Counted from the first letter of the stretch, positions 1,740 through 40,316 are shown. The stretch: DNA of 64,000 bases from an uncultured Bacilli bacterium (GCA_934086395.1 CAKOIE010000004.1:285-64284); one strand, 5' to 3'. A program made the numbers and translations. The notes: a model not told the origin generated them from the letters alone.

Positions 1740-2612
1740 TTATACATTTGGAAAGCCCATAATTTTCAAAATATTATTAATACTAATAGAATTCAATTTA
1801 CTATCTAATTTTTTTATCTCTCTATCAACCGCTTTAGTTAAACTGTGATACTGTCTCTTAGTTAATAAAAATTCTAAAGCTCTCATTATCATATAAAAAT
1901 TAGTAACATTATTTGTAGGGCATTTATAACTAGAATCAATTTGTTTAAATCCTAATGTACTTTTTTCTCTAAAGCAGAACAAGCGATCTGTGTGAGCCGA
2001 GATGTTACGAACACTTGTTAAATTTCTAAGAATTTGCTTTAATAAATTTTCTGGAATATTGAAATATTTAGCAATCTTTTGCCTATCTTGTAATTTTAAT
2101 AATCCATAATATTTACTCATTACACCAAAAGTTAAAATTTTCGTTAATACAAATGGTGGAATAAATCCATAATTATCCTTATAATGCGTTATTGCTAAAT
2201 GTATTCCGTATGAACGATTAATCTCATCATTTATAATTGATATTAGTTTATTTACTGTTTTACTAGAAGCAGAAGGATCAAAGTTTTTAATATCTAAATA
2301 ATCTTGAAGCCCATAATTTTCTGCAATACAATTAGCCATAAGGGATTTGATTAATATTTCAACCTCCAAAACATATTGCATCATTATTAATTTTAAATTT
2401 TTATCAAATTCATATAAAGCATATATTTCATCAAAAATAACATTAGGTAAATAATTATTATTTTTATCTTTAAAATTGTTTTTATAACTATTAATTATTG
2501 AATAATATGTACATCTTTCTAATTTTTTAATAGCACTAGTTCTGCTTTTAACAATTACACCTTTAGAAATTAAATAATCAATCAATTCATCATTAGTTTT
2601 AAATTCTTTCAT
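1740..2612 (-). CDS. Abi_2 family (AbiD/AbiF-like) abortive infection protein
   Basis: The N-terminal pattern (DELIDYLISKGVIV ... LERCTYYSIINSYKNNF ... IYALYEFDKNLKLIMMQYVLEVEILIKS) resembles the Abi_2/AbiD-F family. ATG at 2612 is preceded by AAGGAGG; the upstream TTG start in the ORF track is unlikely. Confidence 0.7.
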   Translation of the reverse strand: MKEFKTNDELIDYLISKGVIVKSRTSAIKKLERCTYYSIINSYKNNFKDKNNNYLPNVIFDEIYALYEFDKNLKLIMMQYVLEVEILIKSLMANCIAENYGLQDYLDIKNFDPSASSKTVNKLISIINDEINRSYGIHLAITHYKDNYGFIPPFVLTKILTFGVMSKYYGLLKLQDRQKIAKYFNIPENLLKQILRNLTSVRNISAHTDRLFCFREKSTLGFKQIDSSYKCPTNNVTNFYMIMRALEFLLTKRQYHSLTKAVDREIKKLDSKLNSISINNILKIMGFPNV

Positions 2613-2726
2613 ATATGCCTCCTTAACCAAAAAAAATGACCTAAGGCTTCAAAAGTTTCCTAGGCACCATTCGTTAGTAATATATCAAAATTTATTTATA
2701 CTTGTCAATATCATCTTTAAAAATTT

Positions 2727-10330: not shown

Positions 10331-11272
10331 TTATTTTATATTAATATTAATGTAACATTCATTAATTAAAAAACTTTTTATTTCAGTATTATTGTCTGTT
10401 TCATAATAATTAATTAGTAAGGATTTATATTGATCAATTTTTTCAACAGGAATTACTATTATTCCTTTTCCTTTGCCTATCAAATAATGATTAGCAAATA
10501 TTACAGAGGTTCTTTTATTTCCATCAAGAAAAATTTGTTTTTTTACTGTATATAAAAGTAAATTTATAGCTTTATCAACGTCATTTTCTTTAATTTCTAA
10601 TATATTATTTAATTCTTCTTTTATTTGTGATTCAATAGGTATATCAGGAATCCAATTTGTTCCACCAATTTTTACTGGCGTAGTTCTTAATTGTCCTGCA
10701 TTATAATAAAATCCTTCTTCAACCAATTTATTTATTGTACATAAAACGTTATAATCTGACTTATTAAGTATTACATTTTTATTAAGAATAAACTCCCATG
10801 CATGTTTAAGATTGACTACTTTCATTATATCTTCGGATGACATATCATTTACTTTGCCACCTTCGATAATACTTTCAGTATCTGATAAAGTTGTTGCAAC
10901 ACCTTCTAAAATTGCTTGTTTATATATTGTATCAGCTAAATGTTTTTTTGCAAAATCAATATTTCTTGATACTTCCAGTGATAGTTCTTCATCAACATAA
11001 TTTAATTCTTTTAATTGTTTTTCAATAGTTCTAATTGTTTTTTTTATGTCTTTTGCTTTTACGTTGTTATTTAATATTAAATTATAAAGAGTTTCATTGT
11101 ATTCTCCAATATATTTGGTTGATTGTAGTCCATCTTCTTTAATATGTGTGTAGATATATTTTTTATTATCTTTTTCTCTAATTTCTACTGCTCCATACAC
11201 AAGTTTATTTAATTCAAATTCTAATAATTCCTTTTGATTTATTAAATTTAGTATTTGCATTTGGTTATCCAT
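10331..11272 (-). CDS. Fic/Doc family protein with a degenerate active-site motif
   Basis: QIFLDGNKRTSVIFANHYL aligns to the Fic/Doc core H-x-F-x-D-G/A-N-K/G-R, but Gln replaces the catalytic His. The start at 11272 has an AGAGGTG RBS. The longer ORF-track start would abut the leuS stop. Confidence 0.6.
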   Translation of the reverse strand: MDNQMQILNLINQKELLEFELNKLVYGAVEIREKDNKKYIYTHIKEDGLQSTKYIGEYNETLYNLILNNNVKAKDIKKTIRTIEKQLKELNYVDEELSLEVSRNIDFAKKHLADTIYKQAILEGVATTLSDTESIIEGGKVNDMSSEDIMKVVNLKHAWEFILNKNVILNKSDYNVLCTINKLVEEGFYYNAGQLRTTPVKIGGTNWIPDIPIESQIKEELNNILEIKENDVDKAINLLLYTVKKQIFLDGNKRTSVIFANHYLIGKGKGIIVIPVEKIDQYKSLLINYYETDNNTEIKSFLINECYININIK

Positions 11273-13770: not shown

Positions 13771-14105
13771 TATTTTTTCCTCCTCTTATAAATACTTTCT
13801 AATATATTTCCCATAATTCCGTAGAAAACATATATGAGCGCTACTAATAGAACGAATCCATATAGTAATTGCCATATTTTATCCATATCAATCATTGTAC
13901 AAAGTACTCCTGTTGAACTAATAATAAAAGCATTTACTATTGATAATATAATACCTAATTTATTATAATCTTCTTTTTTAACTTTAAGTAGTTCCATTCC
14001 AATAAATTTTTTTAATTTATTTTTCTTTCTTTTAATAAAATAGTCTACTAAAAATATAATGAAAAAGATAATAAATAAGATTAAAAATAAAAATAAATTT
14101 TCCAT
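13770..14105 (-). CDS. Small two-TM membrane protein translationally coupled to leuS
   Basis: 111-aa ORF starts just after the T-box terminator. Its TAA overlaps the leuS ATG by 1 nt, and its last codons contain the leuS RBS (AGAGGAGG). Confidence 0.5.
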   Translation of the reverse strand: MENLFLFLILFIIFFIIFLVDYFIKRKKNKLKKFIGMELLKVKKEDYNKLGIILSIVNAFIISSTGVLCTMIDMDKIWQLLYGFVLLVALIYVFYGIMGNILESIYKRRKK

Positions 14106-14300
14106 AAATATCCTTTCTATAACAAAAAAACGACTAATTCTAAAGGACGAATAAGCCGTGGTACCACCTTAATTTTTACTTTTAGTTTTAACGGTCTTCA
14201 CCTTAAACATCCGTTAAGTAAGTTCACTATATATATTTGTTAATTTCCACCAATCATTAACTCTCTATAAAATATTTTTTAGTTACTACTCTTAACATCT
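14106..14300 (-). promoter_or_regulatory. T-box leader, Leu specifier (CUU)
   Basis: On the minus strand: T-box sequence AATTAAGGTGGTACCACGG (14156-14174). Terminator CGGCTTATTC-loop-GAATTAGTCG followed by U7. Stem I has an AGAGAG bulge motif and a specifier loop GAA-CUU-A (codon at 14220-14222) closed by GTTAAG/CTTAAC. Confidence 0.85.
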
Positions 14301-14317
14301 TCTGTTAAATAATAATT

Positions 14318-14393
14318 TGGCTGCCCAGGTTGGATTCGAACCAACGAAATGTTAGGGTCAGAGCCTAATGCCTTACCACTTGGCGACTGGGCA
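14318..14393 (-). tRNA. tRNA-Gln (anticodon CTG)
   Basis: Cloverleaf read by eye: acceptor TGCCCAG/CTGGGCA, D-arm GCCAAGTGGTAAGGC, anticodon loop CTCTGAC, T-arm GGTTCGAATCC, encoded CCA. Confidence 0.9.
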
Positions 14394-14502
14394 ATTCAAA
14401 ATACAAGTTTATTATACTACTTTAATGCTTTTTAAATCAATAACAAATGTAATAACTCCTAGTCTTTTTACAATTCAGTAAAAAAGTTAAACAAGGTTAA
14501 AC

Positions 14503-14526
14503 AAAAAAAAGAACTAAAAAGTTCTT
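14503..14526 (-). terminator. Intrinsic terminator ending the DarT-like/helicase operon
   Basis: Minus-strand hairpin AAGAAC-TTTTTA-GTTCTT followed by U8. Confidence 0.7.
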
Positions 14527-14532
14527 AAAACA

Positions 14533-14799
14533 TTATTTAATTATTAACGAAATAATACCAATTATTATAGATAAAACAATTAAAATAAGAATAATATTTT
14601 GTTTTTTTTCATATTCATTAACAGAAGACTTTATTTTGTCTATTTCTTTTTCAATATCTTTTTTAATTAATTCTATATCAGATGATTCTTTAATGATTTC
14701 GTTTATTTTTTCATTATTTTCAGATAATGAATTTTTTAACTTATCTATTTCATTTAAATTTATTTTAAATTGATCAATTTCTCTATCCAATTCGTTCAT
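14533..14799 (-). CDS. Small coiled-coil protein with a C-terminal transmembrane anchor
   Basis: 88 aa. The N-terminal about 65 aa are heptad-like and charged (EIDQFKINLNEIDKLKNSLSENNEKINEIIKE...). The C-terminus is ILILIVLSIIIGIISLIIK. The gene starts 2 nt after the helicase stop. Confidence 0.6.
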   Translation of the reverse strand: MNELDREIDQFKINLNEIDKLKNSLSENNEKINEIIKESSDIELIKKDIEKEIDKIKSSVNEYEKKQNIILILIVLSIIIGIISLIIK

Positions 14800-14801
14800 T
14801 T

Positions 14802-17800
14802 CTAATTTTCCTTTCTATTTTCAAATCTTTCATTTATAAATGGAATCCAATATTTTACTACTACATCATCTTTATCAAGCTCATCAAGAATTACACCTCT
14901 AAATACTTTTTTATCTTGTCTATATAAAACATCTAATAATAATTCTTTTTCGTTATCATTAACATTTTTATAAGCTAAAGCCCCTAGATTCTTATATATT
15001 TCAACTTTTTCTTGATATTCAGAAGTAGAAATGGCATAATTTAATAATTCTATTACTGATTGCTTATTGTAATTTTCTTTTCTAATATTTAATAATGCTA
15101 AATATACTCTCATCTTATTATTTACAACTGATTCCATTTCACTCTCTATTTGTATTATTTTTGATTCCAAATCTTCAATTTTAGTTGATATAGCCTTCTT
15201 TATAACATTCTCAATTGATACATTTTCAAAACCATATGTTATGCCTTCATCTTTTAAAGGTTTTATTATGCTTGCTATATTAAAATAATCATCAATTACA
15301 TTTTGAATAGCATCCGATTTTCCTTTGCCATTGTATTCACTAGTAGCATATTTATAAATATTTTTTAATTGTATTCTTCTAGTTAGTATAAAATTATCAT
15401 AATACCATTTTCTCATAAAATATATAATGTCAGATAAACCTTTATAATTATAACTATCAACTAAATTAATTGAATTTATGACTGATTTATGATCATCAGG
15501 ATATTGATTAATATATTGTCTTGTTTTTGATTTAATATAATTTAGATTCTTATATTCAGAATCAAATAAAATATTAAACTCAAGTTCGTTATATAAATAT
15601 CCAACTTCCCAATTATCTACAATACCACATTTATGTAATATATATAGGTTTTTTTCAATAATATTTTTATTATTTTTTTCATTAGAAACTATATAATTAT
15701 ATTTGTTATTATTATCTATTAATTTAGATTTAAATATTTTATAAAAAAAATTAATTGCATCATCTGCTTCTTGTTTTGGTTCTTCTAAATTTTGAGTAAG
15801 GAAATAAAAATTAGTAGCAATATCAATTTTATCTTTCAGTAGTTTTGCTAATTCTTTAAGTCTATCAATAGAAGTATTTTCATTAAAAAATTCATTTATT
15901 AATCGATTTTGTTCATCAGAATAATCATATGTGAATATTTTACAATTAGCAGTACTTCCAATTTCACGACCAGCTCGTCCTGCTTCTTGATAAAATCCCT
16001 CCAATGATGATGGAACACCATAATGTATTGTTAATCTAATATTAGGTTTATCAATTCCCATTCCAAAAGCTTTAGTTGAAATTAATACCGACTGATAATT
16101 ATTAATAAACTTTTCCGTTGATAATGAAGCATCATTAGAATAATATTTTCCAACAAGATCTCCAAAACAATATTTTGAAGATAGATCTTCGAATAAACAA
16201 TCAACCTTCTTTTTTGTTTTCGTAAATATGATTGCTGCATTAGTTTTGTTTCCATTTAAACAAACATTAGTTTTAAAAAGCTCAGTTTTTATTGCTTTAT
16301 TCATATTATCTTCAGTATCAAATGTATCAAATTCAAACTTTAAATTATCTCTTTTATATGTTTCATTGAATATAATATCATTTCTACTTTCAATATTTAG
16401 TTCAATCATTAAGTCTTTTATTACACTTTTAGATGCTGTTGCAGTTAACCCTAAAAATTTAATATCAGGACAATATTGTTTAATTGTGTGAGCTACCATC
16501 AAATATGGAATTCTAAAATCATGTCCCCACTCAGATAAACAGTGAACTTCATCTAAAATTATTTTATCAAAAGCTTGCTCATCTTTTAATATAAGTAACT
16601 TGCTCCTAAATTCTTTTGATTGTAATCTTTCTGGAGAAATAAATGTAAAAATATTTTTTAAATTTCCAAATTTTTTTAATTCCAATGATTTATTAACACC
16701 TTTATCACTTGTTATTCTTGAACATCTTGTAATACCAAATCTTTGCTCTAGAATACGACATTGGTCTTTTATAAGTTCGTTTGTAGGCGCAATTACAATT
16801 GAAATTTTTGGTTGTAATAAACATGACAATTGATAAACAATTGATTTTCCACTACCTGTTGGTAATATACCAATTGTGTTTTTTCCAGCAAGTGTATGTG
16901 CAATAATCTCTAACTGCCCTGGTCTAAATTCATCATAACCAAAAATCAGTTTAAGATATTTATTCATAATATAAGAATTATTACTATTTATATCATATTT
17001 TATTGAATTATCAATCCAATAATTTATATTAGTTATTTTATCATCTTTTAATTCTTCAGAAAGTATTTTTTCTTCATAATCTTCTATATAAAACATATAT
17101 TCTGCATTCATATCATATTCTAAATTATAACCTATATTTATTCTTAATCCATCATTAGTATAAGCATTAGTTGTTATATCTAATTTAGGTTCATCATATT
17201 TAATATTTGCTAATTTAGTAAAATCCTTAATGTATTCAAATATATCTAAAATTGCCAATTTGAGCAGTTCTTCTTTTCCTTTAATATAGTTTATTCTCCA
17301 AATTGAATCTTTTAAAACATCATTTTTTAGCAATGTTAATATCAACATTTGTAATCTACATATTTCTTTTAAATCATCATCACTTAAAGACTGTTTTTTT
17401 AAAAACTCACTTATTGTGATTAGTTGCCCTCTTTGAAGCAAATTATTAAGGACAGCATAAAATTGTTTATATTTAGATGTACATTTAGTTTTTAGACCAA
17501 CGTTTCTTAATATATATGAAACATCATTACTTACATAACTATTATCAAAACAAATTTTTCTATTAAGCTTCATTTGCTTTTCAAATAACTCATCATTTTT
17601 TATATTTTCTGTAAAAAAATTTTGATTTTCCAATAATTTTATTTTTTCATTTAGTTCATAAATAATCTTATTTTTTTCATCTACATCAATTGTAGGATCA
17701 ACTGCATTATTTTCTTTTAATTGTTCTATTTCAACTTTATTGTTATAAAGTAATTCTTCTTGTTCTTCTAATTTTTTTAATAATTGATTTTTTTCAAATA

Positions 17801-18524
17801 TTAAATCATCATTCGTTTTATCATTTACATGAGCTTCTAATTCAGATATTTTTGTATTCAATTCATCTATTTTATTATTATATTCTGAATTTTCATTTTC
17901 TAAATCAATTATTTTTTCTTTAATTTCATTAAACTCTTTAAGTTTTTTAAGTGAATTTTTTAGTTGTTGTTCCTTTATTTGCAAAATTAGTTTTTGTTCT
18001 TTTATTAAAGTTTCTCTATCCTTTTTATCATCCTCATAACTTTTTCTAATTTCTTCTCTAATTCTATCTGCTAAATCATCATCAGCCCTTAATAATTCAT
18101 CATAATATTGATCAAGATTATCTAATACAATCTTTTGGTTAAAAACCTCATTATAATAATTTACTGCACAATATAAAAGTTTTCTATACATTTTTTTTAA
18201 TTCTTTTTCAATAAATTCACTTCTATTTTCATGCTTATGATCATTAGAAAGATTGTTTATAACATTTAAATTTCTTATTAATTCTTCTGAATAATTATAC
18301 TTTTTTGATATTTTAGTAATAAATTCCCTATTATTTAATAATTCACCTAACGATATTTTTTTTCTAATAATGATTTTATCTTTATCATTAATTGTTTTTA
18401 ATAATCGTTCTGCAAATATTTGTAGTGCTGTTTCACATAATGATGTTTTTAATTTAATATTTTTATTTATATCATCAAAATCTTTATATAATGTGGGATT
18501 AATTTCTCTAATAAATTCAAACAT
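14802..18524 (-). CDS. RecQ-family SF2 helicase with an N-terminal DUF4145-like domain and a long coiled coil
   Basis: Helicase motifs: FRPGQLEII, ILPTGSGKS, IVIAPTNELIKDQ, DEVHCLSEWGHDFR, LTATAS, STKAFGMGIDKPNIRLTIHYGVPSSLEGFYQEAGRAGR. Residues about 150-310 are K/E-rich heptad repeats. The N-terminal about 130 aa end in NLSNDHKHEN, reminiscent of DUF4145. Confidence 0.85.
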   Translation of the reverse strand: MFEFIREINPTLYKDFDDINKNIKLKTSLCETALQIFAERLLKTINDKDKIIIRKKISLGELLNNREFITKISKKYNYSEELIRNLNVINNLSNDHKHENRSEFIEKELKKMYRKLLYCAVNYYNEVFNQKIVLDNLDQYYDELLRADDDLADRIREEIRKSYEDDKKDRETLIKEQKLILQIKEQQLKNSLKKLKEFNEIKEKIIDLENENSEYNNKIDELNTKISELEAHVNDKTNDDLIFEKNQLLKKLEEQEELLYNNKVEIEQLKENNAVDPTIDVDEKNKIIYELNEKIKLLENQNFFTENIKNDELFEKQMKLNRKICFDNSYVSNDVSYILRNVGLKTKCTSKYKQFYAVLNNLLQRGQLITISEFLKKQSLSDDDLKEICRLQMLILTLLKNDVLKDSIWRINYIKGKEELLKLAILDIFEYIKDFTKLANIKYDEPKLDITTNAYTNDGLRINIGYNLEYDMNAEYMFYIEDYEEKILSEELKDDKITNINYWIDNSIKYDINSNNSYIMNKYLKLIFGYDEFRPGQLEIIAHTLAGKNTIGILPTGSGKSIVYQLSCLLQPKISIVIAPTNELIKDQCRILEQRFGITRCSRITSDKGVNKSLELKKFGNLKNIFTFISPERLQSKEFRSKLLILKDEQAFDKIILDEVHCLSEWGHDFRIPYLMVAHTIKQYCPDIKFLGLTATASKSVIKDLMIELNIESRNDIIFNETYKRDNLKFEFDTFDTEDNMNKAIKTELFKTNVCLNGNKTNAAIIFTKTKKKVDCLFEDLSSKYCFGDLVGKYYSNDASLSTEKFINNYQSVLISTKAFGMGIDKPNIRLTIHYGVPSSLEGFYQEAGRAGREIGSTANCKIFTYDYSDEQNRLINEFFNENTSIDRLKELAKLLKDKIDIATNFYFLTQNLEEPKQEADDAINFFYKIFKSKLIDNNNKYNYIVSNEKNNKNIIEKNLYILHKCGIVDNWEVGYLYNELEFNILFDSEYKNLNYIKSKTRQYINQYPDDHKSVINSINLVDSYNYKGLSDIIYFMRKWYYDNFILTRRIQLKNIYKYATSEYNGKGKSDAIQNVIDDYFNIASIIKPLKDEGITYGFENVSIENVIKKAISTKIEDLESKIIQIESEMESVVNNKMRVYLALLNIRKENYNKQSVIELLNYAISTSEYQEKVEIYKNLGALAYKNVNDNEKELLLDVLYRQDKKVFRGVILDELDKDDVVVKYWIPFINERFENRKEN

Positions 18525-18536
18525 ACTTCACCTCAT

Positions 18537-19109
18537 TTAAAACATTTCATTTTTACAAATTACTGGAATATTAATATTTAATGATGAAACTATAGACTTA
18601 ACAATATCCCTATCATTTTGATTTTTTACAACAATACACTTTATATAATTTTTATCTATTTTATTCTCAAAAAGAATCTCTTTTTGTATATCGTCACTTG
18701 TTAAAAAACTTTTAATAGAATCCATACCTATCAATTTTTCTTTATTTGTTTTTAGCAAAAAATTTATTTCAGAAGTTGCTGCATTCTTATAACAGTAATA
18801 AATATTATTGTTTGAATTATCAAGTAGTGATAAATCTAATACAAGAATAATCCAAATATTCAAATTATTAGTATTATTATGTTCTTTTTTATATAACATT
18901 CTTTTATTAATAATATTGGTTGATACACTTATATAGTTCAGTTGAGCATCAAAACGATTTTTATCAGTATTCACGTATTTAATATTATTCTTTTTCATAT
19001 TTTCTACTGATAATATTCCATTATTTAATATTGATTCTAAGTTATAAATACTAGTAAAGTGAGTTAGAAAATCTATACCATGTTTTTTAAATAAAAGACT
19101 ATTGTTCAT
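18537..19109 (-). CDS. DarT-like (DUF4433-type) ADP-ribosyltransferase domain protein
   Basis: 190 aa. LTHFTSIYNLESILNNGILS parallels the DarT N-terminal YH-x-T-x-x-NL-x-IL-x-G-x-L motif. NRFD (R52), YYCYKNAATS and QKEILF (E144) parallel the DarT R, F-x-D-x-x-A and QAEFLV catalytic-Glu motifs. Assigned by eye only. Confidence 0.55.
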   Translation of the reverse strand: MNNSLLFKKHGIDFLTHFTSIYNLESILNNGILSVENMKKNNIKYVNTDKNRFDAQLNYISVSTNIINKRMLYKKEHNNTNNLNIWIILVLDLSLLDNSNNNIYYCYKNAATSEINFLLKTNKEKLIGMDSIKSFLTSDDIQKEILFENKIDKNYIKCIVVKNQNDRDIVKSIVSSLNINIPVICKNEMF

Positions 19110-19300
19110 TCTAATTATTCACCTACCATATTAACAATATTGTATCATATTTTTTACATTTTTATTATACATATAAATAAGAATTTAAAAAACTTAATTA
19201 TTAAAAAAAATTTTAATATTATTTCATGATAAATTGAATAAATATACTATATATTTATTCATTAATTAGTCTATCAATTATTTGCTTTATTTGGTGCTAT

Positions 19301-19328
19301 AATAAAAAGTAGACTTTAAATCTACTTT
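19301..19328 (-). terminator. Intrinsic terminator after the DHH gene, insulating the downstream island
   Basis: Perfect 7-bp stem (19307-19313 pairs with 19321-19327) followed by a U-run on the minus strand. It overlaps the DHH stop codon. Confidence 0.65.
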
Positions 19329-38402: not shown

Positions 38403-38479
38403 TGGTCGAGAAGACAGGATTCGAACCTGCGACCCCTACGTCCCAAGCGTAGTGCTCTACCAAACTGAGCTACTTCTCG
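38403..38479 (-). tRNA. tRNA-Pro (TGG)
   Basis: Acceptor CGAGAAG/CTTCTCG, anticodon loop CTTGGGA, T-arm GGTTCGAATCC, CCA encoded. Confidence 0.9.
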
Positions 38480-38512
38480 ATAAAAAAGCCTTTCGGCTTT
38501 ACTCTTACTTTA

Positions 38513-38588
<76 letters not shown>

Positions 38589-38592
38589 ATCA

Positions 38593-38669
38593 TGGCGGTT
38601 CGTACGGGATTCGAACCCGTGATCTTCTGCGTGACAGGCAGACGTCATAGGCCTCTAGACTAACGAACC
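38593..38669 (-). tRNA. tRNA-Asp (GTC)
   Basis: GGTTCGTTAGTCTAGAGGCCTATGAC..., anticodon loop CTGTCAC, CCA encoded. Confidence 0.9.
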
Positions 38670-38670
38670 A

Positions 38671-38747
38671 TGGTTGCGGGAGCCGGATTTGAACCAACGA
38701 CCTCCAGGTTATGAGCCTGGCGAGCTACCGAGCTGCTCTATCCCGCG
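38671..38747 (-). tRNA. Initiator tRNA-fMet (CAT)
   Basis: CGCGGGATAGAGCAGCTCGGTAGCTCG...CTCATAA... Shows a C1:A72 mismatch and close similarity to bacterial initiator tRNA. Confidence 0.85.
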
Positions 38748-38756
38748 ATAACTATA

Positions 38757-38847
38757 TGGCGGAGAAAAAGGGATTCGAACCCCTGCGCCGTTGCCGACCT
38801 CCTGGTTTTCAAGACCAGTCCCTTCAACCAGACTTGGGTATTTCTCC
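38757..38847 (-). tRNA. tRNA-Ser (TGA)
   Basis: Long variable arm, anticodon loop CTTGAAA, CCA encoded. Confidence 0.9.
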
Positions 38848-38873
38848 GTTTCCTTCTTTCAAGGAACAAATAG

Positions 38874-38903
38874 ATTATATCACACTAAAAAAAATTAAGT
38901 CAA
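38874..38903 (-). promoter_or_regulatory. Promoter of the minus-strand tRNA cluster
   Basis: TTGACT (38898-38903) - N18 - TG-n-TATAAT (38874-38879) on the minus strand. Confidence 0.55.
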
Positions 38904-39025
38904 CAATTAGAAACACTTTTTTTACTTTTTTTTCATATTTCCTTGTATGTATATGTATTTTTATTCAAAAAAATACTTAAAAATAATAAAAAAACTAAAA
39001 TTTTAACAAATTTTTAAAAAAAGTA

Positions 39026-39054
39026 TTGCACTAATTAAAATTATTTGGTATATT
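39026..39054 (+). promoter_or_regulatory. Promoter of the plus-strand tRNA cluster
   Basis: TTGCAC (39026-39031) - N17 - TATATT (39049-39054). Confidence 0.55.
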
Positions 39055-39087
39055 CAAGAAGTCTTAGTTATTAAGACAAATGTGCCC

Positions 39088-39176
39088 GCCCGAGTGGCGG
39101 AATAGGTAGACGCACAGGACTTAAAATCCTGCGAGCATAATAACTCGTGCCGGTTCAAGTCCGGCCTCGGGCACCA
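39088..39176 (+). tRNA. tRNA-Leu (TAA)
   Basis: Acceptor GCCCGAG/CTCGGGC, long variable arm, anticodon loop CTTAAAA, CCA encoded. Confidence 0.9.
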
Positions 39177-39191
39177 TTTAATATATTAGTC

Positions 39192-39268
39192 GGGCGATTA
39201 GCTCAGTTGGTTAGAGCACCTGCCTTACAAGCAGGGGGTCGTAGGTTCGAGTCCTACATCGCCCACCA
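39192..39268 (+). tRNA. tRNA-Val (TAC)
   Basis: GGGCGATTAGCTCAGTTGGTTAGAGCA..., anticodon loop CTTACAA. Confidence 0.9.
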
Positions 39269-39276
39269 TTTAAATT

Positions 39277-39352
39277 GCCGACATAGCGTAATTGGTAGCG
39301 CAACTGACTTGTAATCAGTAGGTTGGGGGTTCGATTCCCTCTGTCGGCACCA
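39277..39352 (+). tRNA. tRNA-Thr (TGT)
   Basis: GCCGACATAGCGTAATTGGTAGCGC..., anticodon loop CTTGTAA. Confidence 0.9.
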
Positions 39353-39362
39353 TTTATAAAAT

Positions 39363-39446
39363 GGGAGGATAGCGAAGTGGTCAAACGCGGCAGACTGTAA
39401 ATCTGTTCCTTCGGGTTCCATAGTTCAAATCTATGTCCTCCCACCA
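39363..39446 (+). tRNA. tRNA-Tyr (GTA)
   Basis: Acceptor GGGAGGA/TCCTCCC, extended variable arm, anticodon loop CTGTAAA. Confidence 0.9.
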
Positions 39447-39458
39447 CTTTTAAATAAT

Positions 39459-39534
39459 TGCCTCGTAGCCAAGTGGTAAGGCATCAGACTTTGACTCTGA
39501 CATTTCGGTGGTTCGAGTCCCCCCGAGGCAGCCA
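39459..39534 (+). tRNA. tRNA-Gln (TTG)
   Basis: TGCCTCGTAGCCAAGTGGTAAGGCA..., anticodon loop CTTTGAC. Confidence 0.9.
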
Positions 39535-39543
39535 ATTTAAAAT

Positions 39544-39619
39544 GTCCTGTTAGCTCAGTCGGTAGAGCATTTGACTTTTAATCAAAGGGTCTGGAGTTCG
39601 AATCTCCAACAGGACACCA
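39544..39619 (+). tRNA. tRNA-Lys (TTT)
   Basis: GTCCTGTTAGCTCAGTCGGTAGAGCA..., anticodon loop CTTTTAA. Confidence 0.9.
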
Positions 39620-39630
39620 TTTGAAATATT

Positions 39631-39658
39631 AACCTTCTCTATTCGAGAAGGTTTTATT
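39631..39658 (+). terminator. Intrinsic terminator of the tRNA cluster
   Basis: AACCTTCTC-TATTC-GAGAAGGTT followed by TTTATT. Confidence 0.7.
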
Positions 39659-39724
39659 GTGCTTATTTATAATTATAATAAAAGACAACCTGCCAAGGCC
39701 ATCCTTTAAACAATTATTGCTTTA

Positions 39725-40132
39725 TTATGCAAATAAGTTATCTTTATATTTAATATTATATTCACTCATTAAAATTCCAAAAGATTTATCATCTTCATAA
39801 ATATATTCTAAATCATTATTATAAGTTACATCAAAAGGATTAGCGTTAGAAGCAATATCAAATCTAGCACATTTGTTACCAAATATAACTTGTATTTCAA
39901 CGATATCTTTTTTATATTGTAATCTCTTCTTCTTAAAATTATCTAAAAAACCTTTATTTAATTTAATTAAGCATAAGTTAGCATATAATTTATTTCTAAT
40001 TATTGTAGGTTCATATGGAATTTCTTCTCCATCATTTTTTACATTAGAAATAAAGAAATTTTCACATTCTTCTTGATTTAAAGAAATAATATCTCCATTT
40101 TCAAATAATATATTAATTGCTTCTATCTTCAT
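39725..40132 (-). CDS. Hypothetical protein
   Basis: 135-aa ORF. No motif recognised. Confidence 0.45.
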   Translation of the reverse strand: MKIEAINILFENGDIISLNQEECENFFISNVKNDGEEIPYEPTIIRNKLYANLCLIKLNKGFLDNFKKKRLQYKKDIVEIQVIFGNKCARFDIASNANPFDVTYNNDLEYIYEDDKSFGILMSEYNIKYKDNLFA

Positions 40133-40239
40133 TCTTTATCCACCCTATAATAAGCATATCACATCTCATTAATTATGCAATCAAAAATACTTTATTTTTT
40201 TAAATTTTTATGATATATTATTTTTGCAATTATTTATTT

Positions 40240-40316
40240 GCGCTCATAGCTCAATTGGATAGAGCGTTAGACTACGGATCTAAAGGTTAGGGGTTCGACT
40301 CCCTTTGGGCGCACCA
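40240..40316 (+). tRNA. tRNA-Arg (ACG)
   Basis: GCGCTCATAGCTCAATTGGATAGAGCG..., anticodon loop CTACGGA, CCA encoded. Confidence 0.9.

Follow-up and report, generated by a model that had tools for sequence, protein, structure and literature searches.

The DNA analysed here is a stretch of 64,000 nucleotides from an uncultured Bacilli bacterium (GCA_934086395.1, CAKOIE010000004.1:285-64284), hereafter the window, in which three co-oriented genes of the minus strand form a compact module. Gene 1 (18537-19109, 190 aa) codes for a predicted DarT1-like ADP-ribosyltransferase (ART), gene 2 (14802-18524, 1240 aa) for a RecQ-family helicase with long extensions on both sides of its motor, and gene 3 (14533-14799, 88 aa) for a tail-anchored coiled-coil protein. 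The genes are separated by 12 nt (gene 1/gene 2) and 2 nt (gene 2/gene 3), and a check of the open reading frames (ORFs) returned exactly the coordinates and gaps given in a preliminary description made from the DNA sequence. They are most likely a horizontally acquired, strain-variable three-gene conflict module. The positions of the features are collected in Table 1; in what follows, labels L001-L043 designate the loci or contigs compared and P0045-P0122 the representatives of protein clusters.

Gene 1 is a member of the DarT family. It matches the Pfam family DarT (PF14487) over positions 2-200 of the 201 of the model (E 5.6e-18, 65.8 bits for a cut-off of 22.5) and also the PADLOC DarT model (E 4e-12); PF14487 is likewise carried by eight out of eight close homologues. 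A profile built from 14 family members and searched against PDB retrieved DarT1 of E. coli C7 (8BAQ, E 2.3e-25) and a DarT2-DarG fusion (7OMU, E 1.6e-7), and the DarT fold first proposed by eye for this ORF is thereby upheld. The score against the NCBIfam equivalog toxin_DarT (NF048013) is 37 bits, under the cut-off of 150, so gene 1 represents a divergent, DarT1-like subfamily. The toxicity of DarT1 needs each of the residues E152, N104 (base-coordinating, His119 in DarT2), M71 and R52 (Schuller et al. 2023, PMC11543638). These align to E144, N109, M71 and R52 of gene 1, respectively, and all four, together with H17, are invariant in the 21 family sequences collected (21/21). The designation of E144 as the catalytic glutamate is thus borne out by its alignment with E152 of the E. 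coli C7 enzyme. Since the catalytic residues are invariant, gene 1 looks like a catalytically competent DarT1-like ART, and the Asn at the base-coordinating position, as in DarT1, suggests that its target base is probably guanine rather than thymine.

Gene 2 contains a complete RecQ-type superfamily 2 (SF2) helicase core, as had been read from the sequence. The Pfam families DEAD (E 1e-21) and Helicase_C (E 3e-15) span aa 534-853, the core matches RECQ1, BLM and RecQ structures in PDB with E values from 1e-45 to 1e-49, and 24/24 family members keep motif 0, Walker A, DEVH, the SEWGHDFR signature and motif VI unchanged. TIGR00614, the subfamily model of the RecQ family, is passed (237.3 bits, above the cut-off of 219.8), whereas the score against the bacterial RecQ equivalog TIGR01389 is 255, far under the cut-off of 640. 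Moreover, RQC and HRDC gave no Pfam match in gene 2, and aa 860-1000 hold no Zn-Cys cluster, with just two scattered Cys. Gene 2 is a RecQ-family helicase and not a RecQ orthologue. In PADLOC, the best matches of the core are the DpdF models (3.5e-75), which score above PsyrT (8.6e-59 over aa 521-958, covering profile positions 9-432 of 689); the NCBIfam DpdF equivalog NF041063 aligns to aa 463-866 with 125 bits for a cut-off of 550.

The region that follows the motor was modelled with AlphaFold2 (AF2) at a predicted local distance difference test (pLDDT) score of 80.8. Its PDB profile search was empty and Foldseek of the model (aa 865-1240) gave no match at E<0.02 in PDB or BFVD, yet aa 890-1081 are common to gene 2 and a PsyrT-like helicase encoded on enterobacterial plasmids. 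The AF2 models were built on alignments of 12 sequences (pLDDT around 80, predicted template modelling score 0.44-0.51), and the metagenome scan used a C-terminal profile from a sub-alignment of six sequences.

Three regions precede the motor. The N-terminal domain is modelled as helical over aa 1-128. Used alone as the query of a full HMMER search of 1.84 billion representative sequences, it was found in 69 proteins, nearly always at the extreme N-terminus, with E39, N94 and H98 invariant throughout the family and K97 nearly so. It occurs in RecQ-like helicases of 1210-1260 aa, with identities as low as 29%, in nuclease-helicases with DUF559 or MTES_1575 (P0112, P0120), and in fusions with GIY-YIG, DUF2726 and LRR_5 domains; many other carriers are proteins of 250-460 aa with no assignable further domain. 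The domain looks like a module, so far uncatalogued, that conflict proteins carry at their N-terminus. Considered as a family in its own right (E...N-x-x-K-H; P0063-P0122), it comprises at least 69 representative clusters, mostly proteins of 250-460 aa. The preliminary description had called this N-terminus DUF4145-like, and that assignment has to be given up: PF13643 is absent from 12 family members (E<=10), 54 wider homologues (E<=0.01) and 26 isolated N-domains (E<=10), and a PDB profile search and a word-indexed search of homologues lent it no support either. Weak matches, each sub-threshold and from a single member, were obtained to HEPN (0.0023), 23S_rRNA_IVP (0.015) and NTase_sub_bind (0.079), families which we take to share one Pfam clan with DUF4145, and Foldseek of the N-terminal model gave a weak match to the HEPN toxin 7bxo_F (E 0.6, TM-score 0.45). 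From these resemblances a HEPN-like four-helix bundle is possible. The conserved motif is N-x-x-K-H, with no conserved Arg, where HEPN proteins have an Rx4-6H-type motif.

The coiled coil of about 160 aa announced for gene 2 is recovered in the AF2 model as long helices over aa 149-306; its block-mean pLDDT is mostly 80-90, dropping to about 60-65 where the helices break and at either end of the arm, and its Foldseek matches are mostly coiled-coil proteins. The middle alpha/beta domain (aa 320-520), included in a model with pLDDT 79.5, received no assignment from Pfam, PDB or Foldseek. A degenerate DUF559 or restriction endonuclease domain, as found in P0112/P0120 and in the plasmid protein described below, was rejected for this domain (hhalign probability <1%).

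Gene 3 homologues were identified across the loci (blastp E 1e-8 to 1e-11). They share an N-terminal motif MN(D/E)(I/L)D(K/R)EI(D/E)xF and a single hydrophobic helix at the extreme C-terminus (Kyte-Doolittle maximum 2.2-3.1 in the last ~20 residues), in agreement with the initial reading of a coiled-coil peptide with a C-terminal transmembrane (TM) helix. The coiled coil between them varies, giving proteins of 88-156 aa in the DarT clade and of up to 298 aa elsewhere. A homologue lies 3' of the helicase in every locus with an intact 3' flank, those without DarT included, the exception being the truncated fragment L031. In one lineage of the DarT clade, gene 3 is followed by a conserved protein of 148 aa whose N-terminus holds a TM segment (L034 5013-5459, L037 5176-5622), which may be a lineage-specific fourth gene.

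Table 1. Features of the module and its borders in the window (positions from the first nucleotide; aa, residues of the encoded protein).
Feature	Position	Strand	Description
Gene 1, DarT1-like ssDNA ADP-ribosyltransferase (predicted), 190 aa	18537..19109	-	Key residues H17, R52, M71, N109, E144
Gene 2, N-terminal helical domain, aa 1-135	18120..18524	-	Helical in AF2 model; E39, N94, K97, H98 conserved
Gene 2, coiled-coil arm, aa 149-306	17607..18080	-	AF2 helices 149-231, 239-272, 278-306
Gene 2, middle alpha/beta domain, aa 320-520	16965..17567	-	Invariant motifs SKYKxFYAV..N..QRG and W.INY (alignment and AF2)
Gene 2, RecQ-type SF2 helicase core, aa 521-890	15855..16964	-	Motif 0, Walker A GSGKS, DEVH, SEWGHDFR signature, motif VI QEAGRAGR
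Gene 2, C-terminal region, aa 891-1240	14802..15854	-	Helical hairpin, winged-helix-like beta unit, ~250-aa helical domain (AF2)
Gene 3, tail-anchored coiled-coil protein, 88 aa	14533..14799	-	TM helix ~aa 68-87 (nt 14536-14598)
Accessory island, whole module	14441..19300	-	4,860 bp; 21.3% GC vs ~26% in flanks
5' region, island-borne	19110..19300	-	Candidate promoter TG-n-TACAAT near 19138-19147 and ribosome-binding site AGGTGA ~11 nt before gene 1 ATG; read from sequence
Terminator-like hairpin after gene 3	14501..14526	-	7-bp stem 14509-14526, AAGAACU/AGUUCUU, then U8 (RNA fold)
Terminator-like hairpin of upstream DHH gene	19306..19328	-	Left edge of insertion site; chromosomal, not island
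tRNA-Gln(CUG)	14318..14393	-	ARAGORN and Rfam tRNA; chromosomal context

An important feature of the module is that no enzyme able to reverse DNA ADP-ribosylation was found in it. Macrodomain, NADAR and ARH families are absent from genes 1-3 in Pfam, PADLOC and NCBIfam searches, no hydrolase fold was matched by gene 2 in the PDB profile search, and the scanned neighbours of the related loci harbor no macrodomain, NADAR or ARH (PF03747) in Pfam or PADLOC, and no PADLOC model at all. A hydrolase hidden in gene 2 was looked for by Foldseek of the AF2 models, aa 865-1240 against PDB and BFVD and aa 1-530 against PDB, and rejected, nothing being returned at E<0.02, although the list for aa 1-530 was dominated by coiled-coil matches. 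The absence of a macrodomain noted at the outset is therefore upheld by profile hidden Markov models and by structure comparison. The pairing of known DarT toxins with a macrodomain DarG, invoked at the same time, is less apposite, as gene 1 is DarT1-like and the canonical antidote of DarT1 is a NADAR protein; NADAR and ARH are likewise not found. The characterised DarT systems (DarTG1, DarTG2 and DarHTG) all carry a hydrolase erasing the DNA modification, and a conserved DarT without one raises the question of how self-toxicity is survived.

The module is a strain-variable accessory insertion of 4.86 kb. When the window was compared by blastn with the empty-site loci L021, L022, L023 and L026, flanks of 90-92% identity stopped at 19301 and resumed at 14440-14448, and in the sister strains about 8 nt (AATTTTGGG) stand in place of the island and separate the DHH terminator from the tRNA-Gln promoter. 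The loci L021-L026, which carry the LeuS representative P0045 (a member of the 90%-identity cluster that includes LeuS of the window), have the order DHH gene, tRNA-Gln, 110-aa ORF and leuS, and one empty-site contig among them, from ERZ28757582, is 1.27 Mb long. Because the site is empty in strains with ~91% identical flanks, the segment 14441-19300 is an accessory insertion; the description of the module as wedged between core genes was apt, since the DHH gene of the sister strains lies directly before tRNA-Gln/leuS. No terminal repeats, target-site duplication or integrase/recombinase were found for the island. The host is a gut Mycoplasmatota metagenome-assembled genome (MAG), and a member of the 90%-identity LeuS cluster of the window is named Tenericutes/Mycoplasmatota.

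The three genes travel together. In an all-against-all ORF comparison of the window and eight loci (L001-3, L010-12, L014, L017), only the module genes were shared, every flank was different, and the identities of the three proteins co-varied among loci. Across about 13 unrelated contigs, nothing besides these genes was held in common. The triad is present in contigs of the window strain (L004-L009, L018-19) and in L001/L002, L003, L010, L011, L012/13, L014-16, L017, L033-35 and L037-40, with helicases 36.6-100% identical to gene 2. DarT lies directly upstream of the helicase also in L033, 34, 35, 37, 38, 39 and 40, and L017, an uncultured Bacilli MAG, is the sole match among GTDB species representatives. 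Mobile or defence genes border several copies: a type I restriction-modification system and transposases in L001, IS91 in L014, and a tyrosine integrase abutting DarT in L038/L040. A search of IMG/VR for phage carriage returned no relatives, which is uninformative on defence either way, and matches in phage GenBank entries were limited to the helicase core.

These observations bear on a housekeeping or stress role, in which a RecQ paralogue for repair would be paired with DarT as a regulator of replication or growth, as proposed for DarTG of Mycobacterium tuberculosis. Such a role would suit the RecQ family membership, the location beside core genes and the control of replication by DarT in mycobacteria (PMC12170906). 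We consider it very improbable, given the presence/absence polymorphism between near-identical strains, which argues strongly against it, the completely different flanks in each lineage, the linkage to integrases and transposases, the lack of the RecQ Zn-Cys cluster and of HRDC, the RecQ equivalog score of 255 against 640, and the lack of a reversing hydrolase.

The genes are arranged for coupled expression. An element resembling a ribosome-binding site, GAGGTGA, lies 5 nt upstream of the gene 2 ATG and another, AAAGGAAAA, lies inside the 3' end of gene 2, ahead of the gene 3 ATG. In the homologous loci, each module gene abuts its neighbour or overlaps it by 1-17 nt, which makes translational coupling the general arrangement. 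The candidate promoter of gene 1 scored no higher than shuffled background in the promoter scan and is for that reason only inferred. A hairpin followed by U8 does lie 3' of gene 3, where a strong terminator had been claimed; 'strong' overstates it, as its folding energy is -5.9 kcal/mol (z -2.8) and the consensus terminator scan was negative. The 10-bp hairpin after the DHH gene (-7.6 kcal/mol, z -3.7) is kept in the empty-site strains. Neither was called by the consensus scan because it demands three G-C pairs, and the consensus promoter and terminator scans are uninformative in sequence of 21-26% GC. Both hairpins are plausible terminators for a genome of ~25% GC, modest in strength. A conserved upstream RNA or small-ORF antitoxin was rejected, the upstream spacers of the other loci being just 35-67 nt long and mutually unrelated.

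Conservation beyond the DarT clade indicates which components form the core. Helicase relatives at 29-35% identity keep a gene-3-like protein and lack DarT. Other genes stand beside several of them: L032 has an upstream superfamily 1 (SF1) helicase (AAA_11/12) fused to a DUF2726 nuclease, L027 an upstream UvrD_C gene, and L041 a downstream UvrD-like gene with GIY-YIG/DUF4357 neighbours, whereas L028/L029 have the helicase and the tail-anchored protein without a third partner. In addition, tblastn identified a three-gene operon on IncF plasmids (L042 636-6723, Klebsiella pS161-2.2; L043 1079-7223, E. coli pLAO18). Its first gene codes for a DprA-like protein (PADLOC ShosA 2e-65, PsyrA 3e-28), the second for a protein of 1558 aa in which HAD, a ShosT-like phosphoribosyltransferase (PRTase) and DUF559 precede a RecQ-like helicase (34% identity with gene 2 over aa 532-1081, thus past the motor), and the third, overlapping, for a 162-aa coiled-coil 'hypothetical protein' with a C-terminal TM helix. 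The operon suggests that a third component, located in the membrane, has gone unrecognised in some PsyrTA-like systems. The same helicase/tail-anchored pair therefore occurs beside DarT, an SF1 helicase-nuclease or a PRTase, making DarT a swappable effector; an exchange of PRTase and DarT has also been described with NADAR as the partner (DS-32). The conserved core is the RecQ-like helicase and the tail-anchored protein, spanning Mycoplasmatota/Bacilli and enterobacterial plasmids, with DarT in a variable effector slot in this clade. The expectation that the triad would be syntenic accordingly stands for every DarT-clade contig examined, but not for the triad as the conserved unit, relatives without DarT being present.

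The homology of the core to PsyrT also raises an alternative, in which the helicase, alone or together with the membrane protein, would be the true effector, through PsyrT/RqlH-like genotoxicity or membrane disruption by gene 3. DarT would then be accessory or regulatory, for example marking DNA or modifying some protein or RNA, and would not kill through ADP-ribosylation of DNA. The PADLOC PsyrT match over aa 521-958 (E 8.6e-59), the existence of the two-gene form without a third partner (L028/L029), the invariant E39/N94/K97/H98 site of the N-domain, which hints at a separate activity there, and the description of RqlH as a genotoxic RecQ-like helicase constrained by RqlI are all in its favor. 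We nevertheless judge it quite unlikely, as the four residues needed for DarT1 toxicity are invariant in 21/21 sequences, arguing for a fully active DNA ART, and the replacements of DarT are DNA-targeting effectors (nuclease-helicases, PRTase), fitting an effector slot.

The reading that we prefer, with a confidence that is evenly balanced, is that of a mobile anti-phage defence or abortive-infection module in which a membrane-tethered RecQ-like helicase complex restrains a DarT1-like effector and supplies it with single-stranded DNA (ssDNA) on foreign DNA. One coupled transcript would give the three proteins in fixed ratio, as the adjacent or overlapping genes and the co-variation suggest, and the complex would be tethered to the membrane via gene 3. 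At rest, DarT would be restrained without a hydrolase, by sequestration on the helicase/gene-3 scaffold or by denial of ssDNA, a suggestion that comes from the failure to find any hydrolase. Foreign DNA, invading or replicating, would engage the helicase, and ATP-driven unwinding would expose ssDNA, the obligate substrate of DarT, by analogy with DarHTG. DarT would then ADP-ribosylate bases of the ssDNA, probably guanine, judging by residue conservation, and replication would be blocked.

Several points weigh against this scheme. The defence function is itself inferred. The nearest defence-type genes of the window (Fic, Abi_2) are 3-12 kb off, and most loci are short metagenomic contigs, which limits any estimate of enrichment in defence islands. 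An active DarT, as predicted here, would have to be tolerated without a hydrolase. The weakest point of the hydrolase search is aa 320-520, because coiled-coil matches swamped the Foldseek list of aa 1-530, and a divergent hydrolase fold could be missed there with AF2 alignments of 12 sequences. A hydrolase encoded in trans elsewhere in the genome is possible, the searches having covered the module and the neighbours of the loci. Finally, the roles might be reversed, as RecQ-like helicases (PsyrT/RqlH) can themselves be the toxin.

The same restraint of DarT could also serve addiction, in a tripartite toxin-antitoxin (TA) module with DarT as the toxin and the helicase and/or gene 3 as a non-enzymatic, sequestering antitoxin, which would stabilise a mobile element rather than defend. 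DarT family members are bona fide toxins (PMC11543638, PMC13069673), the helicase of ietHAS contributes antitoxin-like control (PMC13069673), the module genes are tightly coupled or overlapping and are found with integrases and transposases, and the related plasmid operon has a DprA-like antitoxin homologous to ShosA/PsyrA. However, an ATPase of 1240 aa with every motor motif invariant would be an unusually costly pure antidote, and the island of the window has no mobility genes to stabilise. We regard addiction as the purpose of the module as unlikely; TA and defence are moreover not mutually exclusive, DarTG and PsyrTA being both.

Returning to a defence module under control of the helicase, a broader proposal may be drawn tentatively, and we hold it to be somewhat improbable: the core pair would be the sensor or scaffold of a broad, unnamed defence family, in which DarT is controlled by a hydrolase-free, membrane-tethered helicase complex gating access to ssDNA. 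If true, this would be the first DarT system to work without a hydrolase, and DarT immunity would have been achieved in a new way. An alternative principle of control, sequestration or substrate gating by a helicase, is made testable. The recurrence of a RecQ-like helicase/tail-anchored pair with varied DNA- or nucleotide-targeting effectors, including PsyrTA-like operons of clinical IncF plasmids, suggests that known systems have an overlooked third component or family. The proposed compact, helicase-dependent DarT1-like enzyme would be of interest for emerging genome editors based on ADP-ribosylation, and the module would enlarge what little is known of immunity in uncultured gut Mycoplasmatota.

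Some further features of the surroundings were noted. Immediately right of the insertion point, tRNA-Gln(CUG) has its own promoter (TTGATT-18-TATAAT, 14411-14440; promoter scan and junction alignment). Apart from this tRNA, the Rfam search of the region identified only a T-box leader (RF00230, E 4e-8) at 14200-14302 on the minus strand, reaching toward ~14090, between tRNA-Gln and a 111-aa ORF/leuS. The match is bounded by the search range, and its 3' part may extend over position 14105, where the 111-aa membrane ORF is annotated to start, so that the start of this ORF, or the ORF itself, may be in doubt. Two divergent clusters totalling 12 tRNAs, including a second tRNA-Gln (UUG), lie at 38403-40316 of the window and have no relation to the module. 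A Fic-domain gene (~10331-11272, minus strand) just downstream of leuS occurs in L023/L026 as well as in the window strain; L021/L022 have leuS directly before an HD-domain gene instead, the Fic gene thus being strain-variable too. From the gene table of L018, the window strain also harbors an Abi_2 gene (PF07751, AbiD/F-like; 1740-2630, minus strand) at a distance of about 12 kb from the island. A pair formed by a Y-family polymerase (IMS) and a YolD-like gene (L004 1-1887) lies upstream of rpsO/pnp in this strain and its relatives, ~8 kb past the DHH gene; it is a cassette of the SOS-mutagenesis type, which would be of interest if DarT were to cause DNA damage.

Among the related loci, L002 (1-3475; GCA_019973215.1, JAIFIG010002794.1) joins the module to genes with eukaryote-type Pfam matches (14-3-3, aspartic protease). 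The eukaryote-type part has a GC content of 32% against 24%, and the module is 99.98% identical to that of L001 from 31 bp upstream of DarT onward; the junction reflects either a chimeric assembly or contamination of a eukaryotic one, or else a transfer event. Very high contig numbers also mark the assemblies from which other loci of the family were taken (WPCH01323921, JAEEGL013645716, JAEIGA010052778).

Compared with known systems, no named system of PADLOC-DB v2.0 is matched by all components: the DarT and helicase-core matches belong to different systems, and no specific match was obtained there for gene 3 or for the two terminal domains of gene 2. Among the papers searched, none combined RecQ, anti-phage activity and DarT, and those on DUF4433 showed no helicase association. 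DpdF, of the 7-deazaguanine Dpd restriction cluster, gives the best PADLOC match of the core, but the score in the equivalog model is 125 bits, far under the cut-off of 550, and no other dpd genes are near the island or in the window. PsyrTA/RqlHI (RecQ-like helicase toxin and DprA-like antitoxin) have a homologous helicase core and part of the C-terminal region, and the plasmid PsyrTA-like operon similarly ends with a small, overlapping, coiled-coil, C-terminally anchored protein. They differ by the DprA-like antitoxin, no DprA/PsyrA/ShosA-like gene being present in the island, and the plasmid protein contains PRTase, HAD and DUF559 domains absent from gene 2, and lacks the N-domain and the coiled-coil arm. 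In the module, the predicted enzymatic toxin is encoded by a gene of its own, DarT.

On the DarT side, gene 1 is closest to DarTG1 (DarT1 with a NADAR-type DarG1; E. coli C7, 8BAQ), with the essential residues kept, the same size and a single domain. DarTG1 has a NADAR antitoxin, whereas there is none in the module or beside any locus, and the partners are instead a 1240-aa helicase and a membrane protein. DarTG2 (DarT2 with a macrodomain DarG; Thermus, M. tuberculosis, enteropathogenic E. coli) belongs to the same ART family (7OMU, E 1.6e-7), and ADP-ribosylation of ssDNA would be expected in both; it is more distant than DarT1, its base-coordinating residue is His where gene 1 has Asn, and its macrodomain has no counterpart here. 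A combination of DarT and helicase has a precedent in DarHTG (Liu-DS3), composed of DarT, the UvrD-like DarH and the ARH-like DarG3 and validated in NAR 2026 (PMC13069673), in which defence requires the DarT active site and the ATP-binding residues of the helicase (PMC13069673). The preliminary view that the combination is not a named system thus stands as regards PADLOC-DB, although it is less isolated than it seemed. The DarHTG helicase is an SF1, UvrD-like enzyme with no 2B domain, whereas gene 2, a RecQ-like SF2 enzyme, is extended by N-terminal, coiled-coil and C-terminal regions; DarHTG keeps a hydrolase, DarG3, and has no tail-anchored membrane protein, the module being the opposite on both counts. 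The module is thus an unnamed variant and not a member of DarTG, DarHTG, PsyrTA or Dpd, and DarHTG, as a DarT operon with a recruited helicase, would provide the best functional analogy for a helicase feeding or activating DarT.

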